Assembly (NCBI GenBank): GCA_013359235.1 | Contig: JABWCE010000007.1 | Coordinates: 26,609-90,608 of the forward strand | Reading direction: 5' to 3' | Origin: Bacteroidota bacterium | GTDB taxonomy: Bacteria; Bacteroidota; Bacteroidia; NS11-12g; UBA9320 | DNA length: 64,000 bases | In this document: piece after piece, positions 1 to 47,260 of the stretch | How the letters are laid out: the number at the start of each line of letters is the position of its first letter | Position numbering within the stretch: the stretch's first letter is position 1 | The notes under the pieces: generated by a model | What the model was told of the DNA's origin: nothing | The model's database searches: none | Seen by the model: only the letters and a program-made list of their open reading frames with translations | Position numbers and translations under genes: made by a program

Positions 1-283
1 CAGTTTCCACATGGCAAAACAGCAGGAATAATAACATTTTTGCCTATCAAATTTTTATCTCCATCCACTACTGTTCCGCTTATTTCATGACCAAGAGTTA
101 AGGGAAGAGTTTTTTTGGTTTGTACTCCGTAATGCCAAAAGCTCAAATCTGTATGGCAAACACCGCATCCTGCAACTTTTACAAGCACTTCTCCATCTGC
201 CAATTTTGGAAAATCACAATTTGTTTTGACAAAGTCTTTGTCAGTTTCTATCATTTGCCACTGGTACATTTTATCTATGTGCA
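1..283 (-). CDS. Zn-dependent alcohol dehydrogenase (MDR family), N-terminal part; continues beyond window start
   Basis: Reverse-strand translation from the ATG at 283 reads MHIDKMYQWQ...CGVCHTDLSFWHYG...GHEISGTVVDGDK. It carries the catalytic-Zn GHExxG and CGxCHTD motifs. It sits 4 nt downstream of the previous minus-strand gene. Confidence 0.55.
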
Positions 284-287
284 TTAT

Positions 288-466
288 TTATTTTTTTATA
301 TCATAAAAACATCTGACAGGAGAATACAATTTCCCTTCTGCCATCAATTTTTTTAGAGTTTTATCTACTATTTTTTTATCAATACCTGTAAGTTCAGCTA
401 TTTCGCCTCCTTTAAGTGGTTTGGCAGATTTTGAAATCTGTTTTAATATTTGTTCTGATGCTTCCA
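288..466 (-). CDS. small hypothetical protein, possible winged-helix/HTH
   Basis: Start trimmed to MEASEQILKQ to avoid overlapping the thiolase. The sequence KGGEIAELTGIDKKIVDKTLKKLMAEGKL resembles an HTH recognition segment. It is embedded inside the operon. Confidence 0.3.
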
Positions 467-474
467 TATTTTTT

Positions 475-1737
475 TTATAAATTGATATTTTCAAATAATA
501 CAGCAGTACCCTGCCCACCTCCAATACAGGCAGAGGCTATTCCGTATCTTATATTTTTTCTTTTCATTTCTTTAGCCAGCGTTAATGATAATCTCAAGCC
601 ACTTGCAGCAAGTGGATGTCCTATGGCAATAGCTCCGCCGTTTACATTTAGTTTGTTTCTATCAAGTCCAAGTTCTATTTCGCAACCTATAACCTGCGAT
701 GAAAATGCTTCATTAATTTCAAATAATCCAATTTCGTCTATTTTTAAACCTGTGATTTCTAATAGATATTTTATAGCGGGCACGGGACCGAGTCCCATTA
801 CCTTTGGGTCTATGCCACTAGTAGCTGCAGCTACAACTTTTGCAATGGGATTAATATTTTTCGACTTTACAAAACTGCCAGAAGCTACAATGCCTGCCGC
901 GGCTCCATCTACTATTCCGCTGCAATTTCCGGCTGTTAAAACTCCCACTTCGGCAAAAACATTTGGTAATTTTGATAAAGATTCAAGATTAGTTTCACGT
1001 ATTTGTTCATCGCTGGTAAAATCTTTAACTCCACCCGATAATTTTACTTTTCTTGATTTTAAACCTTCAATTTCAAAAACTGTTGAATTTATTGGTGTTA
1101 TTTCTTCATTCAAAAAACCATTATTTTTAGCAGCAATAGCACGGTTAAACGATAGTAAAGCATATTCGTCACATTGATTACGAGTAATTTTATGTTTTAC
1201 AGCTACATTTTCGGCAGTAAACCCCATTGGATAGCCGGCGGCTGTATCGTCTAATGCTTCCCAAAGCATATCTTTAAATACAGGACGACCAAGCGGATAT
1301 CCCATTCTGTTTCCAAAACTTACTGTAGGAGCAAGTGACATACTTTCGGCTCCACAACACAGGGTTGCGTCTGCTTTGCCAAGTGTAATCTGTTCGGCAG
1401 AAGTTACAATGGTTTCAAAACCTGAGGCACAAATTCTCTGTACCATCAATGCAGGAATAGGCATTGGCAGCCCTGAAAATAGTGCTACATGACGTGGAAA
1501 AAAATATGCATCGCCTGATGATTGACCTATGTTTGCCATTACTGCCTGGTCAATATCAGAGGGTGAAATATTACTATTACTTATTGCAGCTTTGCTTGCA
1601 AAAATTCCAAGATCGGTTGGCGATACATTTGCAAGAGTGCCACAGTATTTGCCAAATGGCGTTCTTGCTCCATTTATAAAAAAAATGTCGTCAAATATTA
1701 TACCTATACCCTTATCTTTTGAGTGAAATGCTTTCAT
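475..1737 (-). CDS. acetyl-CoA C-acyltransferase (thiolase II family)
   Basis: 420 aa. N-terminal FINGARTPFGKY, CASG active-site region and C-terminal GGGQG motif. Full-length thiolase fold. Confidence 0.85.
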   Translation of the reverse strand: MKAFHSKDKGIGIIFDDIFFINGARTPFGKYCGTLANVSPTDLGIFASKAAISNSNISPSDIDQAVMANIGQSSGDAYFFPRHVALFSGLPMPIPALMVQRICASGFETIVTSAEQITLGKADATLCCGAESMSLAPTVSFGNRMGYPLGRPVFKDMLWEALDDTAAGYPMGFTAENVAVKHKITRNQCDEYALLSFNRAIAAKNNGFLNEEITPINSTVFEIEGLKSRKVKLSGGVKDFTSDEQIRETNLESLSKLPNVFAEVGVLTAGNCSGIVDGAAAGIVASGSFVKSKNINPIAKVVAAATSGIDPKVMGLGPVPAIKYLLEITGLKIDEIGLFEINEAFSSQVIGCEIELGLDRNKLNVNGGAIAIGHPLAASGLRLSLTLAKEMKRKNIRYGIASACIGGGQGTAVLFENINL

Positions 1738-1746
1738 TTATTTTTT

Positions 1747-3597
1747 TTAAACTAACTGTTTTGTTTTATTTTTTGATTCTTTAACAACTTCTGTATTTTT
1801 CCATGTTTGTTTTGCTATAATTGCAGCACCAAGCGAAACAACAAATTGAGGAAAATCAATTGTTTTAACTTCTCTATTAAATTTTTTAATTAAAATAGTA
1901 CTCATGTAAGGATGATGTGCAGCAACGCCTCCAATCATAAAAATAGGAATTCCGGGAACCAATCTCATTTTTGCAACTTTGTTTGCTATTGAAATGTAAA
2001 TACCTCTTGCAATATCTTGCATCGGCATTCCGTCAAATACCCAGTTCATAATTTCTGTTTTGGCAAAAACAGTACAAAAACTGTTTAATTCCTTGTCATA
2101 TTCTGAATGTGATGCAAGGTTGCTCATCTCTTCAATTTTTATTTCTGCTCTTTCTGAAATTTCTTCGAGAAAGGCACCGGTTCCGGCAGCACATTTATCA
2201 TTCATATAAAAGTTTGAAACTTGATTATCATTGTTACAATGAATTACTTTTATGTCTTCGCCACCTATATCTATAATATTTTTTTCTCCGTCATAAGAGT
2301 CTGAAACTCCTGCTGCTGCACAATTTATTTCGGTTTTTGTTATATCTGTTTCGGTAAAATGTTTTCTTCCGTATCCTGTAGCACAACTGTATTTTATATT
2401 GAATGATGAATAAATTGCCTTAATTACATTCTTCATTGCATTTCTGTCTTTATTCATGGTATGTACAATATATCTGAAAACAGGCTTTCCTTTCTCATTA
2501 ATAATTGTAAATTTGGTATATGACGAGCCCAGGTCCATTCCAAGAAAACAGTTTTGTTCTCTGTAGTATTGCAAAGGATGATTTTTTTCAACTAAACCTT
2601 TTAAAACGATTTTTTTGGTTAAAGAAGCATCAGCCCCCATGGGTCTATTCATTACGTTTTTATTAGTCATGGCTTTTATCATGTTTGTAAAAGCGAGGTT
2701 TAACGAAGTTTTTACATAATGCTTTTTGCCATATTCAACTATTTTACCATTGAAATAATCAATTTCGGTAGGACGGTTATTTATTAAATCTAAAGCTAAA
2801 GAAGGGAAATGCTCGCCTCCTTTTTTTAGGTATTGCATACACTTGCGGTAAAAATCGTCGGGAAAACGAATTTTTTCTTTTTCGGCAACTTCTATCCCTT
2901 CGTTTATTAATTGTTCAACGAGTTCAACAGTTTCGGGGTCAGACATTGCTTCGGCCATTGTAAGCCTGCCTACACCACAAAGTGGGCTAAGGGATGCGTT
3001 TAAAATTGTTTTTTCCCAAGTGCGTTTTAATATTTCAAACGAATTTATATTTTCTGTTTTAAAATCTACACTGTTTAATAAGTCTGCAAAAGTTTCGGAT
3101 TGTTTGCATCTGTTGTCATCAATAGAGCCTATATAGTTTGGTGGAGTAAAAAATGTAACTTTTACTGTATTAGGCGACATGAGGTTTCCGGCATAATTAA
3201 TAACCATTCTCAAGGTTTTTGATTCGCCAAAAACCGATGCTAAAATCTGTTCGGTATCTATTCCGTTTTGTGCAGCAATAACGGTCAATTTTTCGGAATT
3301 TAAAATTTCTGCTTCCTTTGCGGCGCCGAGTGTTTGGTATGATTTGAGGGCAAATATCAAATAATCAAGTCCCAAATTTCTCATTTCTGTAACAGAACTA
3401 TAAACATGTTCAAATCTGGTAATAGAAGCATATATATTTTCGAGTATTATTCCTTCGCTTATTACCTTTTTCAGTTTAAATTCGTCTTTATCACATAAAG
3501 CTACCTCGCAACCGGCCTCTTTTAACTTTACAGCCATTATCATACCCACAGGACCAATCCCCACTATTCCAACTTTTATTTTTTCTGATTTTTTCAT
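1747..3597 (-). CDS. fusion protein: ketopantoate-reductase-like (ApbA/PanE) NAD(P)-binding domain + BadF/BadG/BcrA/BcrD-type activase ATPase
   Basis: N-terminal ~310 aa begin KIKVGIVGIGPVGMIMAVKLKEAGCEV (Rossmann GxGxxG) with ApbA_C-like helical region. C-terminal ~300 aa carry MDLGSSYTKF...IGGEDIKVI...MNDKCAAGTGAFLE...IGGVAAH, the activase [4Fe-4S]-bridging Cys motif and ATPase motifs. Confidence 0.8.
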   Translation of the reverse strand: MKKSEKIKVGIVGIGPVGMIMAVKLKEAGCEVALCDKDEFKLKKVISEGIILENIYASITRFEHVYSSVTEMRNLGLDYLIFALKSYQTLGAAKEAEILNSEKLTVIAAQNGIDTEQILASVFGESKTLRMVINYAGNLMSPNTVKVTFFTPPNYIGSIDDNRCKQSETFADLLNSVDFKTENINSFEILKRTWEKTILNASLSPLCGVGRLTMAEAMSDPETVELVEQLINEGIEVAEKEKIRFPDDFYRKCMQYLKKGGEHFPSLALDLINNRPTEIDYFNGKIVEYGKKHYVKTSLNLAFTNMIKAMTNKNVMNRPMGADASLTKKIVLKGLVEKNHPLQYYREQNCFLGMDLGSSYTKFTIINEKGKPVFRYIVHTMNKDRNAMKNVIKAIYSSFNIKYSCATGYGRKHFTETDITKTEINCAAAGVSDSYDGEKNIIDIGGEDIKVIHCNNDNQVSNFYMNDKCAAGTGAFLEEISERAEIKIEEMSNLASHSEYDKELNSFCTVFAKTEIMNWVFDGMPMQDIARGIYISIANKVAKMRLVPGIPIFMIGGVAAHHPYMSTILIKKFNREVKTIDFPQFVVSLGAAIIAKQTWKNTEVVKESKNKTKQLV

Positions 3598-3604
3598 TTA
3601 ATTT

Positions 3605-4051
3605 TTATAAATTTTTTATAAAATAAACCTCATCATTTACTTCCTCGCCTCCGAATGATTTATTAAAAATTTCTTTATATTTTTCTATTTCAGATTCAAT
3701 ATTTTCATCAGTATCAATTATTGCAGCATTGACAATTTTATCATCATTGTTTTCAAAAAGCAAATTCACTTTTTTAATGCAACCGGTAAGGCATCTGCCG
3801 AGTTCGTCGAGATCACGAGGGCAAAAACAACCATCGTTTTCGTTTGGTGTTACAAGGTAATCGGGATTTTTGTAAAGGTTTTTGTCAGGAAAAATAAATG
3901 CAATATTTCGGCTATTACCATCTTTATTCAGCACAACGTATTTCACATAATGACAGGTATCTTTAATAAGTTTTTGAACTTCGTCATTAGCTAATTCTCT
4001 TCCGTCAGCAAGCCTGAAAATTTTGTTTTCTTTCAAATTATCAGATTCCAT
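3605..4051 (-). CDS. hypothetical small acidic protein with CxC-x10-C-x3-C motif
   Basis: 148-aa ORF tightly packed (7-nt gaps) between the HgdB-like gene and the activase fusion. Motif GCFCPRDLDELGRCLTGC. Confidence 0.5.
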   Translation of the reverse strand: MESDNLKENKIFRLADGRELANDEVQKLIKDTCHYVKYVVLNKDGNSRNIAFIFPDKNLYKNPDYLVTPNENDGCFCPRDLDELGRCLTGCIKKVNLLFENNDDKIVNAAIIDTDENIESEIEKYKEIFNKSFGGEEVNDEVYFIKNL

Positions 4052-4058
4052 GTTGTTA

Positions 4059-5282
4059 TTATTTATGTACTAAAACTTTATTACTTGTAATTTGCTCAAT
4101 AAAAGTTTCAATTTTGGTAATACTTTGCCCTTCTGAGTAAAATCTTAGGTCGCACAAATCGCCTTCAATTATCAAAGTGGGTATTCCTGTGCTTTCTGTT
4201 AATCTTTGTGGCAAGCCAAATCTGGAGTTTGAGTTGTTTGCACAGGTTTTTGCATCGTGAAATATTACTCCATCAATTTTAAAGGTTTTGCATAAATCAG
4301 TAAGTATATTTTGTTTTGCATTTTCGCTTCTGTTTATAAAAATTTCAGTATATGCTTTTGCTGATGACTCAAATGGATTTTCGGGGTCGAATGCATCAAA
4401 AACCCAACTGTTGCAATAAGTTGAAGCAACTACTGCTGCATTATTTTGTATAAACAAATCTGAAAGTGATCTTAATTTACCCCAGATTGGCATTCCGTCC
4501 CAGTACAAACGGCAACTTTCGCTTTCCAAAAATCCAATACCTTTTGCAACGTTTTCTTCCATTTCTTTTAGCAAAATTGTATAATAATCTTTTGCCTGTT
4601 GAGTTCCTCTTAAAACAACAATAGGACCCATGTGTATTGTAGCATCAAAAAAACTAATTGGCGAAGGTGTGTTAGTAGCAGTATAAAGTACTTTTTTCCA
4701 AAGGTCTGTAGCTTCTTTGCTCAATTTTAAAGTTTCTCTGAATTTATCAATATCAAATTTTTTTCCGCTTACTTCTTCGCAAACAGGTATCATTTTTCTG
4801 AATTGTGCAGCAACATCTTCTATTACTTCTTCTTTTATTTCGTCTAAGTGCCGTGGGGGGTAAATTCCAATAACCGGCACATTGAGTTCGCGACCAAAAT
4901 ATGTAAACCAATCTTGCACTTCTCTGCACTGGTTTGTGTTGTACACAATCAAATCAGGCTTTGGCGGACCTTCAAGACCGTAGTGTTCTTGCAGAGGTGT
5001 TTCTCCTTTAAGATATGAACCAATATCAGCAGTAAGATAAGAGCAAATATCGTTTGAATATCCAAACTTTGCTGATTCGGGAATAAGATCACCTGCTGTA
5101 CGTGTAGCACCGAGTAATGCTCCATGATTTTCGGGAAAATGTACTTCAAAGCCAAATGAACGCAAAAGTTCGGCTGGTCCTACACTTGTACACCATGCTA
5201 TTTTTTTATTTTTATTTTTCATACCGAGGAAATAATTTCCCATTATTTCCTTCATCACTTTTGTACTTTGTATTTTATACAT
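4059..5282 (-). CDS. 2-hydroxyacyl-CoA dehydratase / BcrB-BcrC family protein (HGD-D domain), lone subunit
   Basis: 407 aa. N-terminal KKIAWCTSVGPAELLRSFGFEVHFPENHGALLGA and the overall pattern are typical of the HgdB/YjiM/DCCP family. No paralogous partner gene is adjacent. Confidence 0.75.
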   Translation of the reverse strand: MYKIQSTKVMKEIMGNYFLGMKNKNKKIAWCTSVGPAELLRSFGFEVHFPENHGALLGATRTAGDLIPESAKFGYSNDICSYLTADIGSYLKGETPLQEHYGLEGPPKPDLIVYNTNQCREVQDWFTYFGRELNVPVIGIYPPRHLDEIKEEVIEDVAAQFRKMIPVCEEVSGKKFDIDKFRETLKLSKEATDLWKKVLYTATNTPSPISFFDATIHMGPIVVLRGTQQAKDYYTILLKEMEENVAKGIGFLESESCRLYWDGMPIWGKLRSLSDLFIQNNAAVVASTYCNSWVFDAFDPENPFESSAKAYTEIFINRSENAKQNILTDLCKTFKIDGVIFHDAKTCANNSNSRFGLPQRLTESTGIPTLIIEGDLCDLRFYSEGQSITKIETFIEQITSNKVLVHK

Positions 5283-5287
5283 TTCTT

Positions 5288-7414
5288 TTATAATTTAATT
5301 CTTGCATCTACAGCAACAGCCTTGTCGCTAAAAGCCATTACAGGATTTAAGTCCATTTCTTTTATCTGTGGAAAATCTGTAACGAGTTGAGAAATTCTTT
5401 GAATTATTTCTACTACACTTTTTTTATCAATTCCTAGCTGACCTCTCACTCCGTCTAATAATTTAGCTGATTTTATAGTTGAAAGCATTTCTTGAGCTTC
5501 GGTTTGAGTTACAGGACTGAGTTTAAAAACTACATCTTTCAGCACTTCTACATAAATTCCGCCCATTCCAAACATTATCAAATGCCCTGCATTACTTCCA
5601 GCCGAAACTCCAATTATAAGTTCTTTGCCACCCGGCATAAACTTCTGAACAAGGTATTTTAAATTAGTGCCACTAAAATTTTTATTAATGTTTTGTATTG
5701 CAGTTCTAAGTTCGTCTTTACATTTTATATTTATAACAACTCCGCCTTTATCGCTTTTGTGAACAATTTCGGGCGACTCGGCTTTTACTACAACAGGGTA
5801 TCCTATTTTTGATGATATTTGTTCTGCCTTTTCGTAACTGTCGGCTATTGCCCAGTTTGCAACAGCAATTTTGTACGCTTCTAATATTTTAAAAACATTT
5901 TCGGAAGAAAGAAACTTATCTTTTTCAGAATTTGAAAGAATATTAAAAACAGTACTTTTTTCAACATCATCAAAAACCATAGCCTCTCCAATTTCTCTGC
6001 TTTGTATTTTATGATATTTGTACAATGCCCCCAATGCTTTTGCAGCAGTAGTAGGAAAACTGTAGCATGGCACTCCACCATCTCTCATGATTTTTGCGGT
6101 ATGTTGATACCTTTCAAAACTCAAATTTGTCATAAAATTACAAATTATAGGTTTTTTCTTTTGTTTGCTTACTTCTACAATATTTCTAGCAACTTCGTCG
6201 GTATCAGTAAATGGTGCAGTTACAAAATTTATAAAAACGCTGTCAATATTTTCTTCGTCCATCAGTACATCCAAAGCACTTCTAAAATGAGCTCCACCAC
6301 CTGTTGCTACCACATCTATAGGGTTGCCTATTGTAGCTTCGGGTAATAGAGTGTTTTTTAAAATATTTACTGCTTTTTCGCTCAATGGAGGTATTTCAAG
6401 GCCTGCACTTACAAGTTCATCTGTAGCAATTACTGCAGGACCTCCGGTATTTGTAATTATTCCTACTCTATTACCTTTTGGAATTGGCTGAGTAGAAAAT
6501 GCCATAGCTGCCTGGCACATTTCTTCTTCATTTGTAAATGATAAAACACCGGTTTTTTCAAAAATCAATTCGGTTGAAATATCAACTCCGGCAAGCGAGC
6601 CAGTATGCGAAGCTGCAGCTTTTGCTCCGGCTTCGGTTCTGCCTGATTTCATAGCTAAAATTGGTTTTTTCTTAGCTACTATTTTAGCTGTTTCAAGAAA
6701 TTCTTTTGGATTGTGAAATCCTTCTGTATATAATATTATTGCTTTTGTACCTGTGTCTTGTCCATAATATTCTACCACATCTGATATAGAAATATCGCAG
6801 GCATTGCCATTTGAGGCATACATTCTCATCCCTATATCCAAATCGAAAAGACTCTGCATAATAAATGCTCCCACTCCACCGCTAAGGGCTACAATAGAAA
6901 TGGTTCCGGGCTTTGGAAATGTGAACGTAAAATCACAATAAGCATTGTAGTCAGGGTCGCAATTTATTATTCCCTGGCAATTGGGTCCGAAAATACGAAC
7001 TCCGTATTTTTTTGCATTTTCAAGAAAAGCATTTTGCAATGCTACTCCTTCATCGCCCATTTCGCTGAAACCTGCCGAATTTATTATTACCGATTTTATT
7101 CCTTTTTTTCCGCAATCTTCAATTATTTGTGGTACAAATTTGCTTGGTATTATTACATGTGCAAGGTCAATTTCATCGGGTACATCAAAAATTGATGGAT
7201 ATGCTTTGATACCTCTAATCTCCGGTTCTTTGGGATTTATAGGATAAATTTTGCCAGTATAATTGAAATGAATTAGATTTTTGGTGATGACATTACCAAT
7301 TGATAACTCTTTTGAAGAAGCACCAATGATAGCTATTGATTTGGGCTTAAAAAGAGTATCCAACTCGTGTTTAATAGACATTTGCTTACTTGCAATTGAA
7401 TTTTGAACTCCCAT
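5288..7414 (-). CDS. acyl-CoA synthetase (NDP/ADP-forming), fused alpha-beta type
   Basis: 708 aa. N-terminal CoA-binding Rossmann (SIAIIGASSKELSIGNV), succinyl-CoA-synthetase-like middle region, C-terminal ATP-grasp_5 (GYPVVVKAESPEIVHKSDKGGV). Confidence 0.8.
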   Translation of the reverse strand: MGVQNSIASKQMSIKHELDTLFKPKSIAIIGASSKELSIGNVITKNLIHFNYTGKIYPINPKEPEIRGIKAYPSIFDVPDEIDLAHVIIPSKFVPQIIEDCGKKGIKSVIINSAGFSEMGDEGVALQNAFLENAKKYGVRIFGPNCQGIINCDPDYNAYCDFTFTFPKPGTISIVALSGGVGAFIMQSLFDLDIGMRMYASNGNACDISISDVVEYYGQDTGTKAIILYTEGFHNPKEFLETAKIVAKKKPILAMKSGRTEAGAKAAASHTGSLAGVDISTELIFEKTGVLSFTNEEEMCQAAMAFSTQPIPKGNRVGIITNTGGPAVIATDELVSAGLEIPPLSEKAVNILKNTLLPEATIGNPIDVVATGGGAHFRSALDVLMDEENIDSVFINFVTAPFTDTDEVARNIVEVSKQKKKPIICNFMTNLSFERYQHTAKIMRDGGVPCYSFPTTAAKALGALYKYHKIQSREIGEAMVFDDVEKSTVFNILSNSEKDKFLSSENVFKILEAYKIAVANWAIADSYEKAEQISSKIGYPVVVKAESPEIVHKSDKGGVVINIKCKDELRTAIQNINKNFSGTNLKYLVQKFMPGGKELIIGVSAGSNAGHLIMFGMGGIYVEVLKDVVFKLSPVTQTEAQEMLSTIKSAKLLDGVRGQLGIDKKSVVEIIQRISQLVTDFPQIKEMDLNPVMAFSDKAVAVDARIKL

Positions 7415-7433: not shown

Positions 7434-8270
7434 TCAGGCTACAACTGCCTGTTTTTCTTTAAGTTTTATATGTCTGAAACCGCCCCATAATGCAGCACCA
7501 ATTGCACCTGCATAAATTGCATCAGGATGAGAATGTATTTGATATGATTTTCCCATCTCTTCAAGTTGCTCTTCAAGAGCTTGTATCATACCTTTATTTA
7601 AAGCCATTCCACCTGTAACAACAATGGGCGATTCGGCTTTTAGCGAACTTAAAAGTTTTAGTATTCTGTTGGCAATTGAGATATGAATTCCTTTTATAAT
7701 ATCGGGAGTTGAAATTCCTCTCGAAACCATATTTATAACATCAGTTTCGGCAAGAACAGCACATATTCCTGAAGAAATTTCGGGATTTTGTGATTGCATT
7801 GATACATCGCCAACTTCTTCAATTGAAAGTCCTAAATATCTTGAAATATTTTCAACAAACTGCCCCGATCCCGAAGCACATTGTCCAGTCATTTTGTAAT
7901 CGTAAACTCTTGCATCTTCAGATATTTTTATTGCTCTTACATAAAGTGCTCCCATATCTACCACGGTAATTGCATTGGGGTATAGAAAATGGGCGCCTTT
8001 TGCATGAGTAGTCATTCCATAAAAATGTCCTCTTTTTCTTTTTACCAAATCACCCTCGCCTGTTGAAGCAAAGTAGGCAATATCTTCGTATTTGAGGTTG
8101 TGTTTTGATAGCATTTTCTGAGTCATTTCTTCTGCAACCTGCGATGGATCGCGTTTTCTTATCTTTTCGGTGTGTTTGTCTATAAGTTTGGGATTATCAG
8201 AATAATCAACAAGTACTAATTTTATGAAATTAGACCCAACATCAATCCCCATTGTATAAAAATTTTCCAT
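7434..8270 (-). CDS. BadF/BadG/BcrA/BcrD-family ATPase, short form (BcrD/activase-like)
   Basis: 278 aa. MGIDVGSNFIKLVLVD, MTGQCASGSGQFVE Cys motif and GGMALN. Lacks the insertion seen in the upstream paralog. Confidence 0.8.
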   Translation of the reverse strand: MENFYTMGIDVGSNFIKLVLVDYSDNPKLIDKHTEKIRKRDPSQVAEEMTQKMLSKHNLKYEDIAYFASTGEGDLVKRKRGHFYGMTTHAKGAHFLYPNAITVVDMGALYVRAIKISEDARVYDYKMTGQCASGSGQFVENISRYLGLSIEEVGDVSMQSQNPEISSGICAVLAETDVINMVSRGISTPDIIKGIHISIANRILKLLSSLKAESPIVVTGGMALNKGMIQALEEQLEEMGKSYQIHSHPDAIYAGAIGAALWGGFRHIKLKEKQAVVA

Positions 8271-8287
8271 ATCTATTATTTATTAAT

Positions 8288-9712
8288 CTATTGAATTGCT
8301 TCTTGTGTTTTTTTATTTGAAGGAAGGTCGGCACTAATGTTTCTTCTGGCAAACATTGCTCCTCCCAAAGCGCCCATAAATATTGAATCAGTATGAATAT
8401 TTATTGTTATATCATTGCCGTAATTGTCTCTTACAAGCTGGGTAAGATATTTGATAACAGCAGGATTTCTGGCAACTCCTCCGGTAAATGTAAACTCGTT
8501 GAAAACACCACCCGAACGTGCTATAAGCGACATTGCACGCATAATAATTGCTTTGTGCAAGCCACCGAGTATATCTTCACGTTTTTCGCCAAGGTTTGTA
8601 AGTTCTCTAAGTTCTGCACCTGCAAAAACTGTACATGTTGAGCAAATATTTACTTCCTTTTGAGCTTCCATTGCCATTGGTCCAAGTTCGTTTAACGAAA
8701 TACTCATCTCGTCGGCAATATACCCAAGGTATCTGCCACATCCAGCAGCACAGCGGTCGTTCATTTGAAATGATGTTACAAGTCCATATTTATCAACCTG
8801 TATTGCTTTTGTATCTTGCCCGCCAATGTCGAGTACTGTTCTTGTGTCAGGAAAAACAGCATGTGCCCCAAATGCATGGCACAATATTTCGGAACGAATA
8901 CATTCTTGAGGGAAGGGCAATAATGCTCTGCCATAGCCTGTACCGGTCATATTTTCGATATGAAATTCGAGATCGGCAATGTCGTCAATATGAGAACGAA
9001 GTGTTTCTGAAACCTGGTCAAAATTTCCTTTCAGCAAATTCATTTCTGCATCAAAGTTTATACTTTCGTTTTCGGCTACTGTATCGGGCAAGTTTTTGTA
9101 TTTTTCTTTAAGCTCAACCATAGCTTTGTGTACCAGTTCTTTGAAATCGAATTTAATTCTTTCGTTTTCGGCCGGAGAAATACTTTTGTCCCAAACGGTC
9201 ATTAGTGGCTCGAAAAGTGCCATTTCTAATTTGTTTACTTCTTCGTTGTATTTTTCTGATACAATATCTCTGAAAAACTGATTTTTTTCACCCAGATTGT
9301 TGTACAAATAATCGTGCTTTATTTTTGGTTTAAAGGCTTTGCGAATGTTTCTTAAATGACCTAGAATTTCATTTTTTTGTTCATCGTTTTTAAAAAAATT
9401 GTTGCAAGTTTTTACTAGTTCATCGCCCAATTTATCTAGTTTTATTTTAAATTGTTCGTATTGAAATACACTTTCGAGGTCTGAAATGTATTTTTTGTAT
9501 TCGGGTTTCGAAATTATTTCTTTTTCAAGGTTTTTTTTAAGAATTGAAAATCTAGCATTGTATGTAGCTTCATCTCTTGCTATATCGGCTGCTACAGAAT
9601 AATTTGCACGGGTGTTTGTAATACCTCTACCTATTATTTCGTCTTGCTCGTTGATAATTACAGCTTTTGAAGTTGTGGAGCCGAGGTCAACTCCAAGATA
9701 ATATTTGCTCAT
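8288..9712 (-). CDS. BadF/BadG/BcrA/BcrD-family ATPase, long form with ~190-aa helical insertion (BcrA/BadF-like)
   Basis: 474 aa. YYLGVDLGSTTSKAVII, then a long charged insertion, then IGGQDTKAIQV, MNDRCAAGCGRYLG and TGGVARN. The size and insertion position match the large ATPase subunit of class-I benzoyl-CoA reductases. Confidence 0.75.
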   Translation of the reverse strand: MSKYYLGVDLGSTTSKAVIINEQDEIIGRGITNTRANYSVAADIARDEATYNARFSILKKNLEKEIISKPEYKKYISDLESVFQYEQFKIKLDKLGDELVKTCNNFFKNDEQKNEILGHLRNIRKAFKPKIKHDYLYNNLGEKNQFFRDIVSEKYNEEVNKLEMALFEPLMTVWDKSISPAENERIKFDFKELVHKAMVELKEKYKNLPDTVAENESINFDAEMNLLKGNFDQVSETLRSHIDDIADLEFHIENMTGTGYGRALLPFPQECIRSEILCHAFGAHAVFPDTRTVLDIGGQDTKAIQVDKYGLVTSFQMNDRCAAGCGRYLGYIADEMSISLNELGPMAMEAQKEVNICSTCTVFAGAELRELTNLGEKREDILGGLHKAIIMRAMSLIARSGGVFNEFTFTGGVARNPAVIKYLTQLVRDNYGNDITINIHTDSIFMGALGGAMFARRNISADLPSNKKTQEAIQ

Positions 9713-9725
9713 TTTATTATTTTTT

Positions 9726-11027
9726 TTAAACTGTTACTGATTCTTGTGATAAAATTATTTTACGTTGCTCAAGCATTTGAAAATACGATTCAAGTCTGTT
9801 TTTAATATTTGCATACGAAAAATACCTTGGGTCAACAAGGTCGCTTTCAATAAAACCAACCGGAACGCCAGTGCGTTGTTCTATTTCACGCATTATCATA
9901 AGTTGCCCTGCAGAAAATGAATTGCATGATTTAATTGAGTTAATCAAAAATCCGTCAGCTTGATATTCTTTTACATATTTTTCTATGAGATCAACCCTTT
10001 GTGGAAGGTTTAGATTGGTATAACAACCCATACAATATGTAGCAAGGCTTTCGAGTGGCTCTTCGGGGTTTTGGCGATATCCTAAATCATAAACACCGCC
10101 TACTTTTGTATAAGTAGATGCTACAATTACAGCACCCATATCATAAAATATTTTCCAAAATTCGCGGAAGTTTGTCCAGTTGGGAGGTCCTTCTACTACA
10201 AGACGGAAGCGTTCTTTTTGCATTTCGCCTTCTGGGGTTACCGGAAGTAATTTTTTTTCAGCTCTGTCTTTTATTTCGTGATAAAGTTCTTTGTAATATT
10301 CAAGACATTCGTCTGACCCTCTAAAGGCGGTATTTATAGGACCCATGTAATAAACTCCGGCAAAATACGCATCAATTGGCGATGGTTTGATTTTGGCAAG
10401 TTGCAATACTTTTACCCAGTAATCTTCTGATTGAACCGAGTTGCTCAATAGTTTGCTTAATCTGGCAGAATCAAATTTTTTACCTGATACTTTTTCAAAT
10501 TTTGGCAAAACTTCTTCTTTTAGTTGTTTCACCATATAATCAATTTGTTCTTTTGTTATTTTGCCATCTTCCTGATATGGTGTGTGCAACATTGCTATTT
10601 CGGCATTTGGATAAAGTCTGTTGAGATTTTCAAACCATTTTAGAAATGTAAAACATCCTGTATAGCTCAAAAGTAGCAAATCTGGCTCGGGAAGTTTTTC
10701 TCCTGTAGGACCTATATTTCCGTTTAACATCATTCCTATATCGCATTTCACATAAGTACATACATCTTCTGAATGACCCATTTTTTCGGCATCTTTTATA
10801 TACCCGCCCGATTTTTTTCTCATACCCGATTGTAAAGCGTTAATCTCGGGATATACCGGAAGCATATCGAATGACAAAATGAGTTCTATCAAGTTGCCGG
10901 GGACAAACGTATAACAAACTTTTTTGCCTGTTTCTTTTGCTTTGCTAAGGTCATTAAATTGTTTAGCGAGCATTTCTTTTTGAATAATCATGCTCTTTTC
11001 TTTTACTGCATCTTTTGGATTTGCCAT
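9726..11027 (-). CDS. HgdA/HgdB-BcrB/BcrC family subunit (BcrB-like, 433 aa)
   Basis: HGD-D-type sequence (KKVCYTFVPGNLIELILSFDMLPVYPE, conserved Cys). Paralogous to the next gene. Confidence 0.7.
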   Translation of the reverse strand: MANPKDAVKEKSMIIQKEMLAKQFNDLSKAKETGKKVCYTFVPGNLIELILSFDMLPVYPEINALQSGMRKKSGGYIKDAEKMGHSEDVCTYVKCDIGMMLNGNIGPTGEKLPEPDLLLLSYTGCFTFLKWFENLNRLYPNAEIAMLHTPYQEDGKITKEQIDYMVKQLKEEVLPKFEKVSGKKFDSARLSKLLSNSVQSEDYWVKVLQLAKIKPSPIDAYFAGVYYMGPINTAFRGSDECLEYYKELYHEIKDRAEKKLLPVTPEGEMQKERFRLVVEGPPNWTNFREFWKIFYDMGAVIVASTYTKVGGVYDLGYRQNPEEPLESLATYCMGCYTNLNLPQRVDLIEKYVKEYQADGFLINSIKSCNSFSAGQLMIMREIEQRTGVPVGFIESDLVDPRYFSYANIKNRLESYFQMLEQRKIILSQESVTV

Positions 11028-11076
11028 ATTCTTTAATCTTTTAAAATTTCTACTGCTTTTTCAAATTTATGTTTTT

Positions 11077-12240
11077 TTATGCCCAAAGTTTTATCGAGTC
11101 TGAAAATGTTCCGGCTTGTTCTTTTATTACTTTAAACTGCCCTGTATTTTCGTGATATTGGAAGTTTATATGCGGAACACCTGCCGCATCACATTCTTTT
11201 TGCATTTCGGGGCGGTCTAACAGAGCTGGGTCGCAAAAACTTGCAGCCGAAAATATAACACCATCAGCTTCTCTTCTTTTTACAAGTTCTACAAGTCTTT
11301 TACCTTTTGGATTTCCTACATCGTAATAGCACGAAGCAAAAGTACTTTGGTTGAGATATGCTTTTGTGATAGCTTCGAGGGGGTCGTTGGTATCTTCTTC
11401 AATATCTCCTTGTATCCATCGTGAGCCAAGCATAAAATCGTCGTCAACAATGTAGCATCCAGCCATTTCTATTGATTTTATTAATCCCACTGGCGGTTGT
11501 TCGCAAAACGAGCCTGAAACCACAACTCTAATATTATCCATTGCCTCGCCTCTTTCATTTCTTATTACATTTAATATTTTCTGAAGCATTTCATTGTGTT
11601 CTTCTACTGTAATGCAAATACCGGCTCTAAGAATATGATATGTTTCTACTGCCGAAAGCCTCCAAGGATATTTTTGCCTTATGTCGTAAATCTCTTCTAT
11701 TAACCTTCTGTTTATATTGTAAAGTTTTATTGCTTTATTAAGACCGTCAACACTTGCTTTTACACCATTTACATTGTAAATATCATCTATTACTTTTTCC
11801 ATTTCATGTTTGTAAAATGTACCTCCTATAAATGGGTCAAAGTTTTGTGCATAATCAAAATATCTTTGAAATTTACCTTTTTTTGACAACTTAAACATAC
11901 CTGATAGATTTCTTACGCAATCGCAAATTGCAGGAAATAAAAACCCATCAAAACCATTTAGATTATTATCCAAAGCCATTTCAATTATTCCACGAGGCAA
12001 ATGACAAATGTAAGATTGATAATATGCATCGCCTTTAATAATTTGTTTGCGGTCGCCTGTACCCATAATTCCCACAGCTATACCATTGGCTGCATGAATT
12101 ATTTCTCGAGGAACATATATTGGCAGATATCCAACAATTACTCTTTTTTCATCTTTGCTTTTCCATTGTTTTGCATGAGTAAATTCGAGGTCGAATGCTG
12201 TTTTTTCGCACCACGATAATATTTCTTCTAAACTATTCAT
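11077..12240 (-). CDS. HgdA/HgdB-BcrB/BcrC family subunit (BcrC-like, 387 aa)
   Basis: HGD-D-type sequence (VIVGYLPIYVPREIIHAANGIAVGIMG...ICDCVRNL). First gene of the operon. Confidence 0.7.
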   Translation of the reverse strand: MNSLEEILSWCEKTAFDLEFTHAKQWKSKDEKRVIVGYLPIYVPREIIHAANGIAVGIMGTGDRKQIIKGDAYYQSYICHLPRGIIEMALDNNLNGFDGFLFPAICDCVRNLSGMFKLSKKGKFQRYFDYAQNFDPFIGGTFYKHEMEKVIDDIYNVNGVKASVDGLNKAIKLYNINRRLIEEIYDIRQKYPWRLSAVETYHILRAGICITVEEHNEMLQKILNVIRNERGEAMDNIRVVVSGSFCEQPPVGLIKSIEMAGCYIVDDDFMLGSRWIQGDIEEDTNDPLEAITKAYLNQSTFASCYYDVGNPKGKRLVELVKRREADGVIFSAASFCDPALLDRPEMQKECDAAGVPHINFQYHENTGQFKVIKEQAGTFSDSIKLWA

Positions 12241-12281: not shown

Positions 12282-12289
12282 CAAATTTA
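12282..12289 (-). promoter_or_regulatory. candidate Bacteroidota -7 element (TAAATTTG on minus strand) upstream of the bcrC-like gene
   Basis: Matches TAnnTTTG about 45 nt upstream of the ATG at 12240, in the 154-bp intergenic region after rsfS. Confidence 0.25.
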
Positions 12290-12817: not shown

Positions 12818-13582
12818 ATGACACATTCTTTTTTTGAAAAAATAACTTTTTATTATTTTGATGAAACAGATTCTACAAACGATTTAGCAAATTTGCTTCT
12901 TAAACAAAACAAAGCAGAAAATGGCGATGTAATTGTTACAAAATTTCAAACCAAAGGAAAAGGACAATCGGGCAGCAATTGGTTTTCTGAAAGAGATAAA
13001 AGTGTTTTGATTTCGCTTATTTGCAAAGAAATAAATATAGATATTTCAATGCTCACAACAATAAATATGCTTGTTTCGCTAGCCTTATCAAAAACAATAA
13101 AAATTTATCTGCAAAATGAAAATATTAAAATAAAGTGGCCAAATGATATTTATGTAAACAATAAAAAAATTTCGGGTATTTTGATTGAAAGTAATATAAT
13201 TGGTGATACATTAAAAAATATAATAATAGGGATTGGGATAAATGTGAACCAAGATAATTTTCCCGACTTATTGCCCCTTGCCTGTTCTTTTTATACAATT
13301 TCTAACAAAAAGTTTGACACTAATGAAATAACAGGTGTTTTAATTGACAATTTGAACAAGCAACTTGCAGAAATTAAATATTTTGACTTAGAAAAAATTA
13401 AAAGCGAATACGAGTCACAATTATACGGCAAAGATGAGAGTAAGCAGTTTATTAGTAATGGCAAATCATTCGAAGGTACAATAAAAGGAATAAATAAAAA
13501 TGGGCAATTAGAAGTATTAGTAAATAATAATTTAGAAATTTTTAACAATAAAGAAATAGAATTTGTACGGAGCAGTAATTGA
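12818..13582 (+). CDS. birA: biotin--[acetyl-CoA-carboxylase] ligase
   Basis: 254 aa. GKGQSGSNWFS and KWPNDIYVNNKKISGIL motifs of BPL/LPL catalytic domain. Confidence 0.8.
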   Translation: MTHSFFEKITFYYFDETDSTNDLANLLLKQNKAENGDVIVTKFQTKGKGQSGSNWFSERDKSVLISLICKEINIDISMLTTINMLVSLALSKTIKIYLQNENIKIKWPNDIYVNNKKISGILIESNIIGDTLKNIIIGIGINVNQDNFPDLLPLACSFYTISNKKFDTNEITGVLIDNLNKQLAEIKYFDLEKIKSEYESQLYGKDESKQFISNGKSFEGTIKGINKNGQLEVLVNNNLEIFNNKEIEFVRSSN

Positions 13583-14279
13583 CATAGGGAACACACGCAT
13601 AAAAGCGGCAATTTTTGAAAATGATATTTTAAAAAAGAAATTTGATTTTGAAAATTTTAACGACCTTATATTATTCGTCAAACAATTTACAGTAGATATA
13701 CCTGTAATAATTTCGGATGTAACAAGCAGCGATATTAATTCGTTAAATGCTTATATCAAAAAACTTATAATTTTGGATTGTAAAACTCCTATACCCATAA
13801 AAAATAATTATAAAACTCCTGATACTCTCGGTTACGACAGACTTGCTGCAGCAATTGGAGCTTCAGCAAAATATAAAAATGAAAACGTACTTGTGATAGA
13901 TATGGGAACTTGCATAAAATACGATTTTATAAATGAAAAACTTGAATACTACGGGGGTAGCATTTCTCCGGGTCTTGAAATAAAATTTCAAGCACTTAAC
14001 CACTTTACACAAAAACTACCACTTGAAAATAAAAACTATGAATTTTCGCTAATTGGAACTACAACTTCCGAAGCAATTGTAAACGGTGTAATGAATGGAA
14101 CTCTTGCCGAAATAAATGGTATTATACAAGAATATAAAATTACATACCCAAACATAAAAGTTGTAATAACCGGAGGTGATATGTTGTATTTTGCAGATAA
14201 AATTAAAGGAGTGATATTTGCAGACCCCGATTTGGTATTCAAAGGGCTTTACGAAGTATTAAAATATAATGTTAAATAA
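13563..14279 (+). CDS. coaX: type III pantothenate kinase
   Basis: VIDIGNTRIKAAIFEND N-terminus, GYDRLAAAIGA and ITGGD motifs. Overlaps the end of birA. Confidence 0.85.
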   Translation: MYGAVIDIGNTRIKAAIFENDILKKKFDFENFNDLILFVKQFTVDIPVIISDVTSSDINSLNAYIKKLIILDCKTPIPIKNNYKTPDTLGYDRLAAAIGASAKYKNENVLVIDMGTCIKYDFINEKLEYYGGSISPGLEIKFQALNHFTQKLPLENKNYEFSLIGTTTSEAIVNGVMNGTLAEINGIIQEYKITYPNIKVVITGGDMLYFADKIKGVIFADPDLVFKGLYEVLKYNVK

Positions 14280-46279: not shown

Positions 46280-47260
46280 CTAAGTGCTGCAAGGGTCTTC
46301 TATTTCAAGACATACGAGTTTCCATGTTTCATTATGTTTTATGAAATAAAAACCGAGATTTCCATCGGTACTGTAAATAAAAGCAATAATTGTTTTTTCG
46401 AGTTCTTTTATCTCATTTATTTCATTCATTAGAGGTATTTCTTCTTCAGGGCTGAATTCTTTTAAATCTTCGATAGATTTTGAAATTTTATTAAAATTTT
46501 CTTCAATTCCACCATAACAGCCTCTTTTGTTGTATAAATCTGCCATATCGCAGTTTATCTCTGGTTTTTCTCCTTCAATAAACGAAAAATTTGATTTTTT
46601 AAATGATTCGAGTGCTATTTTCCAAGGGATTTCTTCGGCAAATTCTGATATATCATTTATTTTAACAACTGCAGTAATAAATCCGGGTTTTGATAAATAA
46701 AACAAATTAGTAGAATCAGAAATATATTCTTTTAAAGATTTTTCTCCATCTTTTTTTAATTTACTTATAAATTCTAATGCAAAATTGTTAAAATTTTGAG
46801 TTTTAAGATTTGTATTAATTTTGTTTTTTTCATTCTTTTCTTTTTCTATTTGTTTTTCAAAAATCTCTAACGAATCACCACCTATTACATTTCTAATTAA
46901 AATTTGATGAATTTCAACCTTTTTTATTAATTGTTCATACAGTTTTTTTAATTTTTGATTTTCTTCTGTAACAGACTGATTAAGGTTTTTTAACACAATA
47001 AGTTCATTGTTTAGGTCAATTACATATTGCTTGATATCCTTCATTTCGCTCGAAAGCCTTTTGATTTCTGAAAATGACAATGAATCTCTGAATTGCAGAT
47101 TGTTAATTTCACTTTTTTGAACTTTTAAAAGCATTTCTAAAGTATCTATTTTGCTTTTCAATTCTTTTTTCTTGGGACCAAATTGTGAAAAACCTAAATT
47201 TATAGAAAAAACAAATATTAATAATATTATAAAATTCATGTATTTCATATAATAACACAT
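46280..47260 (-). CDS. hypothetical secreted coiled-coil protein
   Basis: 326 aa, signal peptide, heptad-rich middle, Cys-containing C-terminal domain. Confidence 0.5.
   Translation of the reverse strand: MCYYMKYMNFIILLIFVFSINLGFSQFGPKKKELKSKIDTLEMLLKVQKSEINNLQFRDSLSFSEIKRLSSEMKDIKQYVIDLNNELIVLKNLNQSVTEENQKLKKLYEQLIKKVEIHQILIRNVIGGDSLEIFEKQIEKEKNEKNKINTNLKTQNFNNFALEFISKLKKDGEKSLKEYISDSTNLFYLSKPGFITAVVKINDISEFAEEIPWKIALESFKKSNFSFIEGEKPEINCDMADLYNKRGCYGGIEENFNKISKSIEDLKEFSPEEEIPLMNEINEIKELEKTIIAFIYSTDGNLGFYFIKHNETWKLVCLEIEDPCST

Follow-up and report, generated by a model that had tools for sequence, protein, structure and literature searches.

Among the nearest described relatives of the system presented here are the 2-hydroxyacyl-CoA dehydratases (HAD), whose classical gene set, ldhA-hadA-hadI-hadBC, supplies four functions, namely a reductase, CoA activation, an activator and a catalytic subunit. 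In a stretch of 64,000 nucleotides from a Bacteroidota bacterium (GenBank assembly GCA_013359235.1, contig JABWCE010000007.1, positions 26,609 to 90,608; hereafter the window), a single open reading frame (ORF) of 616 aa joins two such functions, a reductase of the ApbA/PanE or ketopantoate reductase (KPR) family and an activase of the HgdC/HadI type. We propose, with a probability of roughly 0.55, that this fusion and its neighbours make up a variant (R)-2-hydroxyacyl-CoA dehydratase route ahead of the benzoyl-CoA pathway.

Reference points for the comparison come from three groups of relatives. The dehydratase subunit HadB and the benzoyl-CoA reductase (BCR) subunit BzdO have a cluster site of three cysteines and a glutamate in common (PMC11971306), and double-cubane proteins (DCCP) are recognized by the seven-cysteine motif CX19CX18-19CX29CX166-170CX32-34CX32C (PMC7317905). 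D-mandelate dehydrogenases are, according to passages in PMC4580590 (citing Wada et al. 2008) and in bioRxiv 10.1101/2024.01.05.573888, NADH-dependent aromatic 2-oxoacid reductases that yield (R)-products and constitute a branch of the KPR family.

A reductase and an activase fused in a single ORF

The ORF and its parts are located as follows:

1747..3597, minus strand: fusion ORF of an ApbA/KPR-family reductase and an HgdC/HadI-type activase, 616 aa, ATG start (Pfam and NCBIfam)
2638..3597, minus strand: N-terminal reductase domain (Rossmann plus ApbA_C), aa 1-320 (Pfam and alignment to E. coli PanE)
2551..2637, minus strand: inter-domain linker, aa 321-349, moderately conserved and partly helical in the structural model
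1804..2550, minus strand: C-terminal activase (archerase) domain, aa 350-598 (Pfam, NCBIfam and PDB alignment)

A preliminary description of the window, made from its letters alone, had read this ORF as an ApbA/PanE fold joined to an HgdC/BcrD-type activase with the motif MNDKCAAGTG, and motif and domain searches bear this out. All three Pfam domains score above their cut-offs, ApbA (PF02558) at aa 9-158 (67.9 bits, cut-off 22.2), ApbA_C (PF08546) at aa 189-310 (103.6 bits, cut-off 22.7) and BcrAD_BadFG (PF01869) at aa 352-595 (125.2 bits, cut-off 31.5). The ORF likewise passes the cut-offs of the NCBIfam models TIGR00745 apbA_panE (160.8, cut-off 141.35) and TIGR00241 CoA_E_activ (167.9, cut-off 125.4). 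At NCBI and JGI, the protein and its orthologues carry the name '2-dehydropantoate 2-reductase' (EC 1.1.1.169), in which the activase half is ignored.

For comparison we used two sets of loci, 80 from species-representative genomes and 80 metagenome loci retrieved through the BcrB protein of the window, the latter set being non-circular with respect to the fusion. Both halves lie in a single ORF at 80/80 genome loci, which belong to metagenome-assembled genomes (MAGs) of Bacteroidota, Ignavibacteria and Chlorobiota, and at 27 of the 37 complete loci of the independent BcrB-retrieved set, down to 47% identity. A database search for like fusions returned over 120 clusters of proteins that show the three-domain architecture, with identities of 65-100% and a length of ~615 aa. 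Across the 80 fusion orthologues, the mean column identity amounts to 0.72-0.83 in the domains, 0.63 in aa 313-350 and 0.24 in the C-terminal tail. Both halves are intact and under purifying selection. The preliminary description had raised the concern that a frameshift in sequencing or assembly produced the ORF, and the existence of unfused orthologues with adjacent genes could be cited for it. This concern carries practically no weight: the identical protein is present on 10 contigs, the three places displayed derive from three different sequencing runs, the fused state recurs in both sets of loci with a conserved linker, and stops abound in both alternative frames along the linker. Since the unfused orthologues keep the order ligase-HGD-ApbA-activase, the ORF of the window is best viewed as a fusion of neighbouring genes and, as judged from its sequence, is a genuine bifunctional protein that arose from two neighbours in an operon.

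Unfused orthologues end or start near the linker region, in which AlphaFold predicts a helix at residues 322-334. The model of the complete fusion has a mean predicted local distance difference test (pLDDT) value of 76 and a predicted template-modelling score (pTM) of 0.50 without a defined interface between the halves, and the latter score implies that no fixed inter-domain geometry is predicted. Residues 263-290 are badly modelled because the underlying alignment is shallow, every sequence in it being at least 64% identical.

Catalytic residues of both halves are conserved

The preliminary description had allowed for the N-terminal domain being a degenerate Rossmann remnant. This is not what we found. 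When aligned to E. coli PanE, the reference sequence of which agrees with PDB 1yjq_A at 302/303 residues, the N-half retains K72, N98, K176 and N180 as K85, N111, K196 and N200, and S244, D248 and E256 as S266, D270 and E278, with the GxGxxG motif represented by G13/G15/G18. The KPR catalytic Lys/Asn/Glu residues are thus all present, and the catalytic residues as well as the GxGxxG motif are invariant across 59 fusion proteins. The pantoate-contacting residues N184/N194/N241 of E. coli KPR correspond to S204/M214/H263, and the NADPH 2′-phosphate-binding R31 is absent, with L34 at this position and Asp36 after strand 2. Because the pantoate-specific residues are replaced and R31 is lost, we regard the N-half as a KPR-family enzyme but not as a ketopantoate reductase, and it stays far below all KPR equivalog models (e.g. 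111.2 vs 252). The N-half is probably NADH-linked, which is suggested by the loss of R31 and the acidic Asp36. Its nearest solved relatives in sequence and fold are the E. faecalis protein 2ew2 and the D-mandelate dehydrogenases 3wfi/5x20/8wl1, and it is closer to the D-mandelate dehydrogenases (E-values of 2.7e-16 for 8wl1 and 1.1e-14 for 3wfi) than to E. coli KPR (3e-5), an order that Foldseek reproduces.

The C-half aligns end to end with HadI, MbdQ, HgdC and DCCP-R, for which Foldseek yields TM scores of ~0.8, and is 27% identical to BcrA/BcrD of the window. It carries the activase motifs DLGS (355), DIGGEDIK (443), MNDKCAAGTG (465-474, with C469), SFCTVFA (506, with C508) and IGGVA (555). 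C469 and C508 align with Cys127 and Cys166 of HgdC and are invariant in 59 sequences, as are the ATP-binding motifs of the ASKHA type. A gene for an HGD-D partner lies near the activase, with only a small ORF intervening in the window, and co-travels with it across the loci; we propose that the activase domain dimerizes and would pass an electron to this partner.

The fusion travels with a CoA ligase and a single HadB-like subunit

Three genes directly upstream of the fusion complete what we consider a functional module:

4059..5282, minus strand: HGD407, a single HadB-like (alpha-type, catalytic) HGD-D subunit of 407 aa, presumed acceptor of the activase electron
5288..7414, minus strand: ADP-forming acyl-CoA synthetase (ACD), 708 aa, CoA-activating step of the module (Pfam and NCBIfam)
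3605..4051, minus strand: orf148, encoded on its own and homologous, though divergent, to the C-terminal PF23562 domain of the AMP-forming CoA ligase that other genomes carry at this position

The HGD-D protein at 4059-5282 had been called HgdB-like in the preliminary description, a designation that we correct here, as it is HadB/HgdA-like and hence of the catalytic alpha type, with the 148-aa ORF between it and the fusion. It scores 177.6 bits with HadB, 131.6 with MbdO and 80.6 with BzdO, an order opposite to that of the window's own BcrB, to which it is 28% identical. It remains under the equivalog cut-offs of BcrB (173.1 vs 486.55), BzdO (80.8 vs 448.6) and the double-cubane model NF040772 (59.9 vs 350). 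HGD407 keeps the cluster ligands C80, C119 and C347 (conservation 1.0) together with the Glu of the PEN motif. Altogether seven cysteines are invariant, the extra four being C31, C168, C290 and C377, of which C31 and C168 are common to MbdO and C290 and C377 are restricted to the protein's own clade. An assignment of HGD407 as a double-cubane protein was rejected despite the seven cysteines, as their spacing of 48/38/48/121/56/29 misfits the motif and the sixth cysteine lacks a counterpart. His131 of BzdO, considered as a marker that separates reductases from dehydratases, is Phe in the window's BcrB and in MbdO and Val in HGD407 and HadB, and is thus not diagnostic.

Exactly one CoA ligase is encoded in 65/65 loci that reach upstream of the HGD407 gene. 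It is of the AMP-forming kind in 37 loci and of the ADP-forming kind in the other 28; the two kinds do not occur together, and no locus lacks a ligase. This pattern is a non-orthologous displacement at a single operon position, occupied by ACD in the window (5288-7414) and by an AMP-forming ligase elsewhere (e.g. L084:7040-8794). In one locus (L085), the gene for the ligase shares 14 nt with that for HGD. In NCBIfam, ACD matches best to two hydroxyacid-activating enzymes of thaumarchaea, the ADP-forming 4-hydroxybutyrate- and 3-hydroxypropionate-CoA ligases; the top match, to the 4-hydroxybutyrate-CoA ligase, reaches 565 bits and is under the cut-off.

The orf148 product corresponds to aa 419-558 of the L084 ligase (35% identity, E 7e-32), in which PF23562 spans aa 421-556. 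Among its homologues, taken as free-standing proteins only (144-155 aa), five cysteines are invariant, namely 33, 75 and 77 (GCFC), 87 and 91 (n=72). orf148 is kept as a gene of its own exactly where ACD has replaced the AMP-forming ligase, and since it persists there, a role of the PF23562 domain beyond adenylate chemistry is suggested. The protein is perhaps a partner of HGD407, which lacks a beta subunit.

Four functions, a CoA ligase, one HadB-like subunit, an ApbA-type reductase and an activase, thus travel together, either fused or as neighbouring genes. In the 80 genome loci, the fusion is accompanied by HGD407 in 74 and by an orf148-like sequence in 70 cases. Five arrangements were found:

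Arrangement 1, window type: BcrCBAD-ACD-HGD-orf148-fusion
Arrangement 2, AMP-ligase type: BcrCBAD-ligase-HGD-fusion
Arrangement 3, unfused (L091/L092): ligase-HGD-ApbA-activase
Arrangement 4, class II type (L093/L095): ACD-ApbA-Had-Oah-Dch-HGD-activase
Arrangement 5: class II gene order behind BcrCBAD (L154, L156, L165)

When retrieved through BcrB, 33 of the 35 loci that are long enough contain HGD and ApbA/activase genes; the remaining two encode ACD and ApbA in an order that puts HGD further downstream, and their contigs end early. Within the sampled BcrB clade (70-87% identity), no cluster without the module was found. Conversely, the module occurs without BcrC in L091, L092, L093 and L095. 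The loci L093-L095 (Bacteroidota/Bacteroidales) show the order ACD-ApbA-Had-Oah-Dch-HGD-activase-thiolase-3HCDH-ACAD-Hcr-like without BcrCBAD, together with divergently transcribed genes for the class II reductase subunits BamB (1242 bits to 4z3w_A) and BamC (269 bits to 4z3w_E). The proteins of these class II clusters are orthologous to those of the window, with identities of 46-48% for ApbA, 53% for HGD and 55% for ACD, and the HGD407-type gene is their sole HGD-D gene.

The module resides in benzoyl-CoA degradation clusters

The fusion is the eighth gene of a minus-strand operon with the order bcrC, bcrB, bcrA, bcrD, ACD, HGD407, orf148, fusion and thiolase, separated by intergenic gaps of 5-49 nt. 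The preliminary description had overlooked this benzoyl-CoA operon setting as well as the absence of a beta subunit. The further features of the operon are:

7434..12240, minus strand: bcrCBAD, class I BCR, operon head (NCBIfam equivalogs)
11077-12240 (bcrC), 9726-11027 (bcrB), 8288-9712 (bcrA) and 7434-8270 (bcrD), all on the minus strand
475..1737, minus strand: thiolase of 420 aa, downstream of the fusion with a 9-nt gap, present in 61/80 genome loci
288..467, minus strand: 59-aa ORF with a weak HTH_11 match, between thiolase and had
1..284, minus strand: first 94 codons of had (6-hydroxycyclohex-1-ene-1-carbonyl-CoA dehydrogenase), truncated by the window edge
12282..12289, minus strand: candidate -7 promoter element TAAATTTG, 42 nt upstream of the bcrC start, read by eye

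BcrB (680.8, cut-off 486.6), BcrC (456.7, cut-off 421.2) and BcrD (320.7, cut-off 312.9) pass their equivalog cut-offs, and BcrA alone remains under it (439.8 vs 578). A longer contig with an identical fusion gene (L001) continues with the 59-aa ORF, had, oah-like, ferredoxin, korABG-like and dch-like genes, and the full Had protein encoded there scores 461.3 on TIGR03201 (cut-off 338.7). As judged from its gene content, the cluster is a complete Thauera-type benzoyl-CoA pathway operon in uncultured Bacteroidota, Ignavibacteria and Chlorobiota MAGs, several of which are labelled lake, reservoir or groundwater. The 59-aa ORF recurs in only 3/80 related loci and would be either a lineage-specific small regulator or no gene at all. 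The element TAAATTTG fits what we take to be the Bacteroidetes -7 consensus, TAnnTTTG, and is a candidate only.

Several clusters contain additional genes for aromatic or acyl-CoA conversion. Hcr-like (4-hydroxybenzoyl-CoA reductase-like) molybdenum enzymes are encoded in at least eight loci of the Fibrobacterota-Chlorobiota-Bacteroidota (FCB) group and in L088, L090, L092, L093 and L095. The best match of these molybdenum enzymes is the 4-hydroxybenzoyl-CoA reductase alpha model (733-818 bits, under the 995 cut-off), and such genes are probably commoner than counted because the loci end at 10 kb. These enzymes, which belong to the xanthine dehydrogenase family, are encoded at the downstream edge of the cluster in L021, L079, L078, L015, L052, L027, L075, L063, L088, L090 and L092, and in L093-L095 a single chain of ~935 aa combines the Fe-S and Mo subunits of the Hcr-like enzyme. 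The interior of the L084 cluster holds a HisC-family aminotransferase gene and an IOR-alpha-like gene, a two-subunit 2-oxoacid:ferredoxin oxidoreductase (OFOR) is encoded in 11 loci, and many clusters encode a FadB-like protein, an 821-aa 3HCDH protein or a short-chain dehydrogenase/reductase (SDR) besides ApbA. No family III CoA-transferase is present in any cluster, its place being taken by the ligase.

A sub-cluster behind a FadB-like gene, seen in L086:14132-20930 and about eight further loci (L009, L024, L028, L029, L046, L050, L056, L073), encodes hydantoinase A/B-family proteins, RidA, an acyl-CoA dehydrogenase and a DUF35/SCP-x-type thiolase pair. Hydantoinase A/B is the family of the acetone and acetophenone carboxylases, and a true acetophenone-type carboxylase at this place would likewise converge on benzoylacetyl-CoA. 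Domain combinations related to the fusion were also observed. A distant ApbA-activase protein (P0124, 39% identity, L087:1164-2993) adjoins NifU/NifS-like genes on a 12.6-kb contig without an HGD-D gene. An ApbA-enoyl-CoA hydratase fusion of 619 aa (P0140, L089:1341-3200) adjoins a gene for the electron transfer flavoprotein (ETF) alpha subunit, and an ApbA-HGD-D fusion of 728 aa (P0142, L088:10001-12187), found in a single Myxococcota MAG, adjoins activase and Hcr-like genes.

The remainder of the window resembles an ordinary Bacteroidota chromosome. A tRNA scan of the window found none, an Rfam scan of the whole window gave no matches, and a scan for sigma-70 promoters remained at chance level (49 found vs 50 expected). 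birA-like and coaX genes are located nearby (12818-14279, plus strand) and are unrelated to the operon. A 611-aa M2 peptidase of the angiotensin-converting-enzyme type (16445-18280, minus strand) adjoins a SusC/SusD pair, a WD40 beta-propeller protein of 406 aa is encoded at 37975-39195 (minus strand), and two ORFs of 443 aa (14269-15600, plus strand) and 326 aa (46280-47260, minus strand) have no Pfam match.

A proposed route from 2-hydroxyacids to benzoyl-CoA

From the domain integrity, conservation, linkage and fused or unfused states described above, we infer the catalytic activities, the flux direction, the substrate and the oligomeric state of the proposed route as follows. The N-domain would act as a KPR-family D-2-hydroxyacid dehydrogenase and reduce an aromatic 2-oxoacid, likeliest phenylpyruvate or 4-hydroxyphenylpyruvate, to the (R)-2-hydroxyacid, from which ACD, or the AMP-forming ligase elsewhere, would form the CoA thioester. 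A dimer of the C-domain, its monomers bridged by a [4Fe-4S] cluster with C469 and C508 as ligands, would receive an electron from the operon-encoded ferredoxin and, driven by ATP hydrolysis, transfer it to that of HGD407 (a [4Fe-4S] cluster at C80/C119/C347). HGD407 would then convert the 2-hydroxyacyl-CoA via a ketyl radical to an enoyl-CoA of the cinnamoyl-CoA type, with the electron being recycled. A hydratase/dehydrogenase and the adjacent thiolase could finally yield (4-hydroxy)benzoyl-CoA and acetyl-CoA, and the product would enter the Hcr-like/BcrCBAD/Dch/Had/Oah steps.

The direction from the acid via the CoA ester to the enoyl-CoA is favoured because a CoA ligase is always present and often AMP-forming and because its gene overlaps that of HGD in L085. 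Since the ORF lies in a benzoyl-CoA degradation operon, the substrate is likely an aromatic acid, and the benzoyl-CoA genes, the Hcr-like enzymes, the aminotransferase and IOR-alpha-like genes of L084, the FadB-like proteins and the thiolase all point to an aromatic 2-oxo or 2-hydroxy acid. Its specific identity as an aryl-lactate is tentative, and we would sooner expect it to be revised than retained. The module also occurs together with the ATP-independent class II BamBC enzymes, which would suit an enzyme with a catalytic ATP demand better than one that consumes ATP for each electron. That the fusion links 2-oxoacid reduction with the radical-initiating step, as the preliminary description had suggested, is the best-supported reading, drawn from gene context and homology and given the co-travel of the genes, the catalytic residues and the kinship with D-mandelate dehydrogenases. 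We put the chance that the two halves act in a single HAD-type route slightly above even. As orthologues also occur as separate proteins and the AlphaFold model shows no fixed interface, we see no sign of a new mechanism, and the fusion most likely secures the co-expression of two proteins of one pathway.

Several observations weigh against this proposal. No beta-type HGD-D gene (HadC/HgdB/FldC) is found beside the HGD407 gene in any arrangement, and every characterized 2-hydroxyacyl-CoA dehydratase has one. HGD407 is under the HadB equivalog cut-off (221.2 vs 750), and it has four extra invariant cysteines, two of them common to the reductase subunit MbdO. The weakest point is the ligase, which could be a benzoate/4-hydroxybenzoate-CoA ligase as needed by any such operon; this would leave the substrate of the module undefined. 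The operon of the window holds no spare hydratase/3-hydroxyacyl-CoA dehydrogenase for the cinnamoyl-CoA step, aromatic aminotransferase genes are found in the cluster at 2/80 loci only, and the ApbA-enoyl-CoA hydratase fusion P0140 hints that some members of the subfamily might act on CoA esters. P0142 was rejected as a second, independent Rosetta stone, since a singleton from one Myxococcota MAG contig provides adjacency evidence only. The lack of a predicted interface between the halves (pTM 0.50) also weighs against the proposal, and all sequences stem from MAGs or metagenomes.

Alternative explanations

HGD407 and the fused activase might constitute a minimal, alpha-only ATP-dependent reductase, BCR-like or dehydroxylating, that acts on a substituted benzoyl-CoA or a ring intermediate, with ApbA reducing a keto group. 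HGD407 belongs to the catalytic group that, according to PMC7317905, holds both BCR beta and dehydratase alpha subunits. The BcrB model gives it 173 bits, it has C31 and C168 in common with MbdO, and the module is always found within benzoyl-CoA pathway clusters, of which one (L092) shows no BcrCBAD within ~6 kb upstream; moreover, a benzoate ligase at the ligase position would leave the module for CoA esters of the pathway. We nevertheless consider this unlikely, as HGD407 is nearer to HadB than to MbdO or BzdO, neither a BcrC/BzdN-type [8Fe-9S] partner for storing two electrons nor the 7-Cys double-cubane motif is present, and the complete class I or II reductases that co-occur make an extra ring reductase unneeded. 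Stoichiometric use of ATP would also be a poor fit to class II organisms, and the set of four functions is an exact match to the dehydratase pathway. A little less probable still is that HGD407 and the activase form an unrecognized alpha-only member of the BCR/HAD family that catalyzes neither dehydration nor ring reduction, e.g. an ATP-driven dehydroxylation or reduction of a pathway intermediate via the four extra cysteines, with ApbA coupled as a carbonyl reductase; if true, this would be a third ATP-dependent radical step in anaerobic aromatic degradation in Bacteroidota, Ignavibacteria and Chlorobi. Improbable on different grounds is a role of the ApbA domain as the missing 3-hydroxyacyl-CoA (3-hydroxypimelyl-CoA) dehydrogenase of the lower pathway, paired with the thiolase and only incidentally fused to the activase. 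KPR and 3-hydroxyacyl-CoA dehydrogenases have a common 6PGDH-type C-terminal fold, the operon of the window contains no other candidate, the thiolase gene follows 9 nt after the fusion, and in P0140, encoded beside an ETF gene, a relative of this ApbA domain is joined to an enoyl-CoA hydratase. However, FadB-like, 821-aa 3HCDH or SDR proteins are present besides ApbA in many clusters, and ApbA always adjoins the ligase, HGD or activase and not the thiolase specifically. The carboxylate-binding Ser is kept as well (S244 as S266), and the nearest structures are D-mandelate dehydrogenases, which act on free acids.

The nature of the substrate and of the electron donor invites two further explanations. 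An aliphatic dicarboxylate could be converted from 2-oxoglutarate via (R)-2-hydroxyglutaryl-CoA to glutaconyl-CoA, or in reverse to feed the OFOR of the operon, which would be in line with glutaconyl-CoA and glutaryl-CoA as intermediates of the lower benzoyl-CoA pathway, the KorABG-like genes of the operon and the two-subunit OFOR elsewhere, an acyl-CoA dehydrogenase of L093 that scores best as glutaryl-CoA dehydrogenase, and the ability of ACD enzymes to run in the ATP-forming direction. The reverse route was ruled out as a common function, since 37/65 loci possess an AMP-forming, effectively irreversible ligase. The clusters also encode no glutaconyl-CoA decarboxylase or CoA-transferase, the relatives of the N-half act on aromatic or branched 2-oxoacids, and the Hcr-like genes would be left unexplained, which makes an aliphatic substrate quite improbable. 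The preliminary description had offered, as its second option, that the ApbA domain passes electrons from NAD(P)H to the [4Fe-4S] cluster of the activase and thereby replaces ferredoxin or flavodoxin. For this option speak the joining of a domain that binds nicotinamide with an ATPase that transfers electrons, and the moderately conserved linker, but it is otherwise unsupported and highly improbable. Pfam and NCBIfam searches revealed no flavin-binding or other domain that converts two-electron into one-electron transfer, NAD(P)H (~-320 mV) is an obligate hydride donor and a poor reductant for such clusters, and enzymes of the KPR family transfer hydride to carbonyl groups; their complete set of residues for carbonyl reduction is conserved here and implies a 2-oxoacid substrate. 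Separate orthologues exist in L091, L092 and L093, the last with three genes between ApbA and HGD/activase, ferredoxin and OFOR genes are present in the operon, and no inter-domain interface is predicted. The variant 2-hydroxyacyl-CoA dehydratase route thus remains our preferred explanation of the module.

Implications

The known anaerobic paths to benzoyl-CoA lead through phenylacetate/phenylglyoxylate or phenylpropanoids. If the proposed route is true, it would represent a third anaerobic path by which carbon of the phenylalanine/tyrosine type, or phenyllactate/phenylpyruvate from fermenters and plants, reaches benzoyl-CoA. A 2026 study on a benzene degrader hypothesizes a conversion of phenylpyruvate via cinnamoyl-CoA to benzoyl-CoA with a 'yet unassigned dehydratase' (PMC13416013), and our literature search found no paper on the fusion or on the module in benzoyl-CoA clusters. 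The fusion gives a sound Rosetta-stone clue, and the module is widespread as well as unusual; the chemistry is probably familiar. Both halves belong to known families, and the sequences have already been public under a misleading name. Correcting the annotation '2-dehydropantoate 2-reductase' matters because it conceals the activase and could lead to errors when pantothenate biosynthesis is reconstructed from MAGs. Complete benzoyl-CoA operons with either class of ring reductase are furthermore documented here for uncultured Bacteroidota, Ignavibacteria and Chlorobiota, as named in the MAG records, groups that are unusual as models of anaerobic aromatic degradation. If the route is confirmed, an enzyme of the 2-hydroxyacyl-CoA dehydratase type could function with only one kind of subunit, together with a ligase and a reductase of the KPR family, which would widen the search image for oxygen-sensitive radical chemistry.

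Comparison with known systems

Among the reductases, the KPR-family D-2-hydroxyacid dehydrogenases (3wfi/3wfj/5x20, 8wl1; 2ew2) match the N-half with E-values of 6e-21 to 1e-14. The D-mandelate dehydrogenases have the catalytic Lys/Asn/Glu in common with it, and Arg31 is gone in both. The identity to them and to 2ew2 is merely ~20-25%, and unlike the D-mandelate dehydrogenases the N-half represents a separate subfamily, fused to an activase and with an invariant Met214 and His263 at substrate-contacting positions.

The class I BCRs (BcrCBAD, MbdONQP 9gai, BzdNO 8s02) belong to the superfamily that also comprises the activase half and HGD407, the latter without a BcrC/BzdN partner. DCCP and its activase DCCP-R (6eno, 7yyl) likewise pair a single HGD-D-type subunit with a homodimeric activase; DCCP and HGD407 each have seven conserved cysteines, split into four in the N-terminal and three in the C-terminal half, but the spacing differs and the sixth cysteine has no counterpart.

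The chemistry proposed here has a parallel in phenyllactate dehydratase FldABC, its initiator FldI and phenyllactate dehydrogenase of Clostridium sporogenes, which convert aryl-pyruvate via (R)-aryl-lactate and its CoA ester to cinnamoyl-CoA with an HgdC-type activator to start the reaction (Dickert et al. 2002, as cited in a passage of PMC13416013). This likeness is one of chemistry by description, FldB/C being absent from the PDB and NCBIfam sets compared. Fld is a heterotrimer in which a CoA-transferase accompanies two HGD-D subunits. Its product undergoes reduction to phenylpropionate, whereas we propose an oxidation to benzoyl-CoA.

As the system has neither a beta subunit nor a CoA-transferase and matches no dehydratase at equivalog level, we do not file it under any characterized dehydratase. 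Also among its closest counterparts is the (R)-2-hydroxyisocaproyl-CoA dehydratase system of C. difficile (LdhA, HadA, HadI, HadBC; 3o3m, 4eht), in which the four functions are united in one operon as they are here. HadI is the best PDB match of the C-half (E 6e-40) and HadB that of HGD407 (E 4e-51), and residues equivalent to those of its dimer-bridging [4Fe-4S] activator and of its catalytic HGD-D subunit, with three Cys and a Glu, are found in our proteins. The system described here differs from it by a ligase in place of the CoA-transferase, the lack of a HadC-type beta subunit, a KPR-family reductase that is fused to the activator and four extra cysteines, and its setting is a degradative benzoyl-CoA operon instead of the amino-acid fermentation of C. 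difficile.

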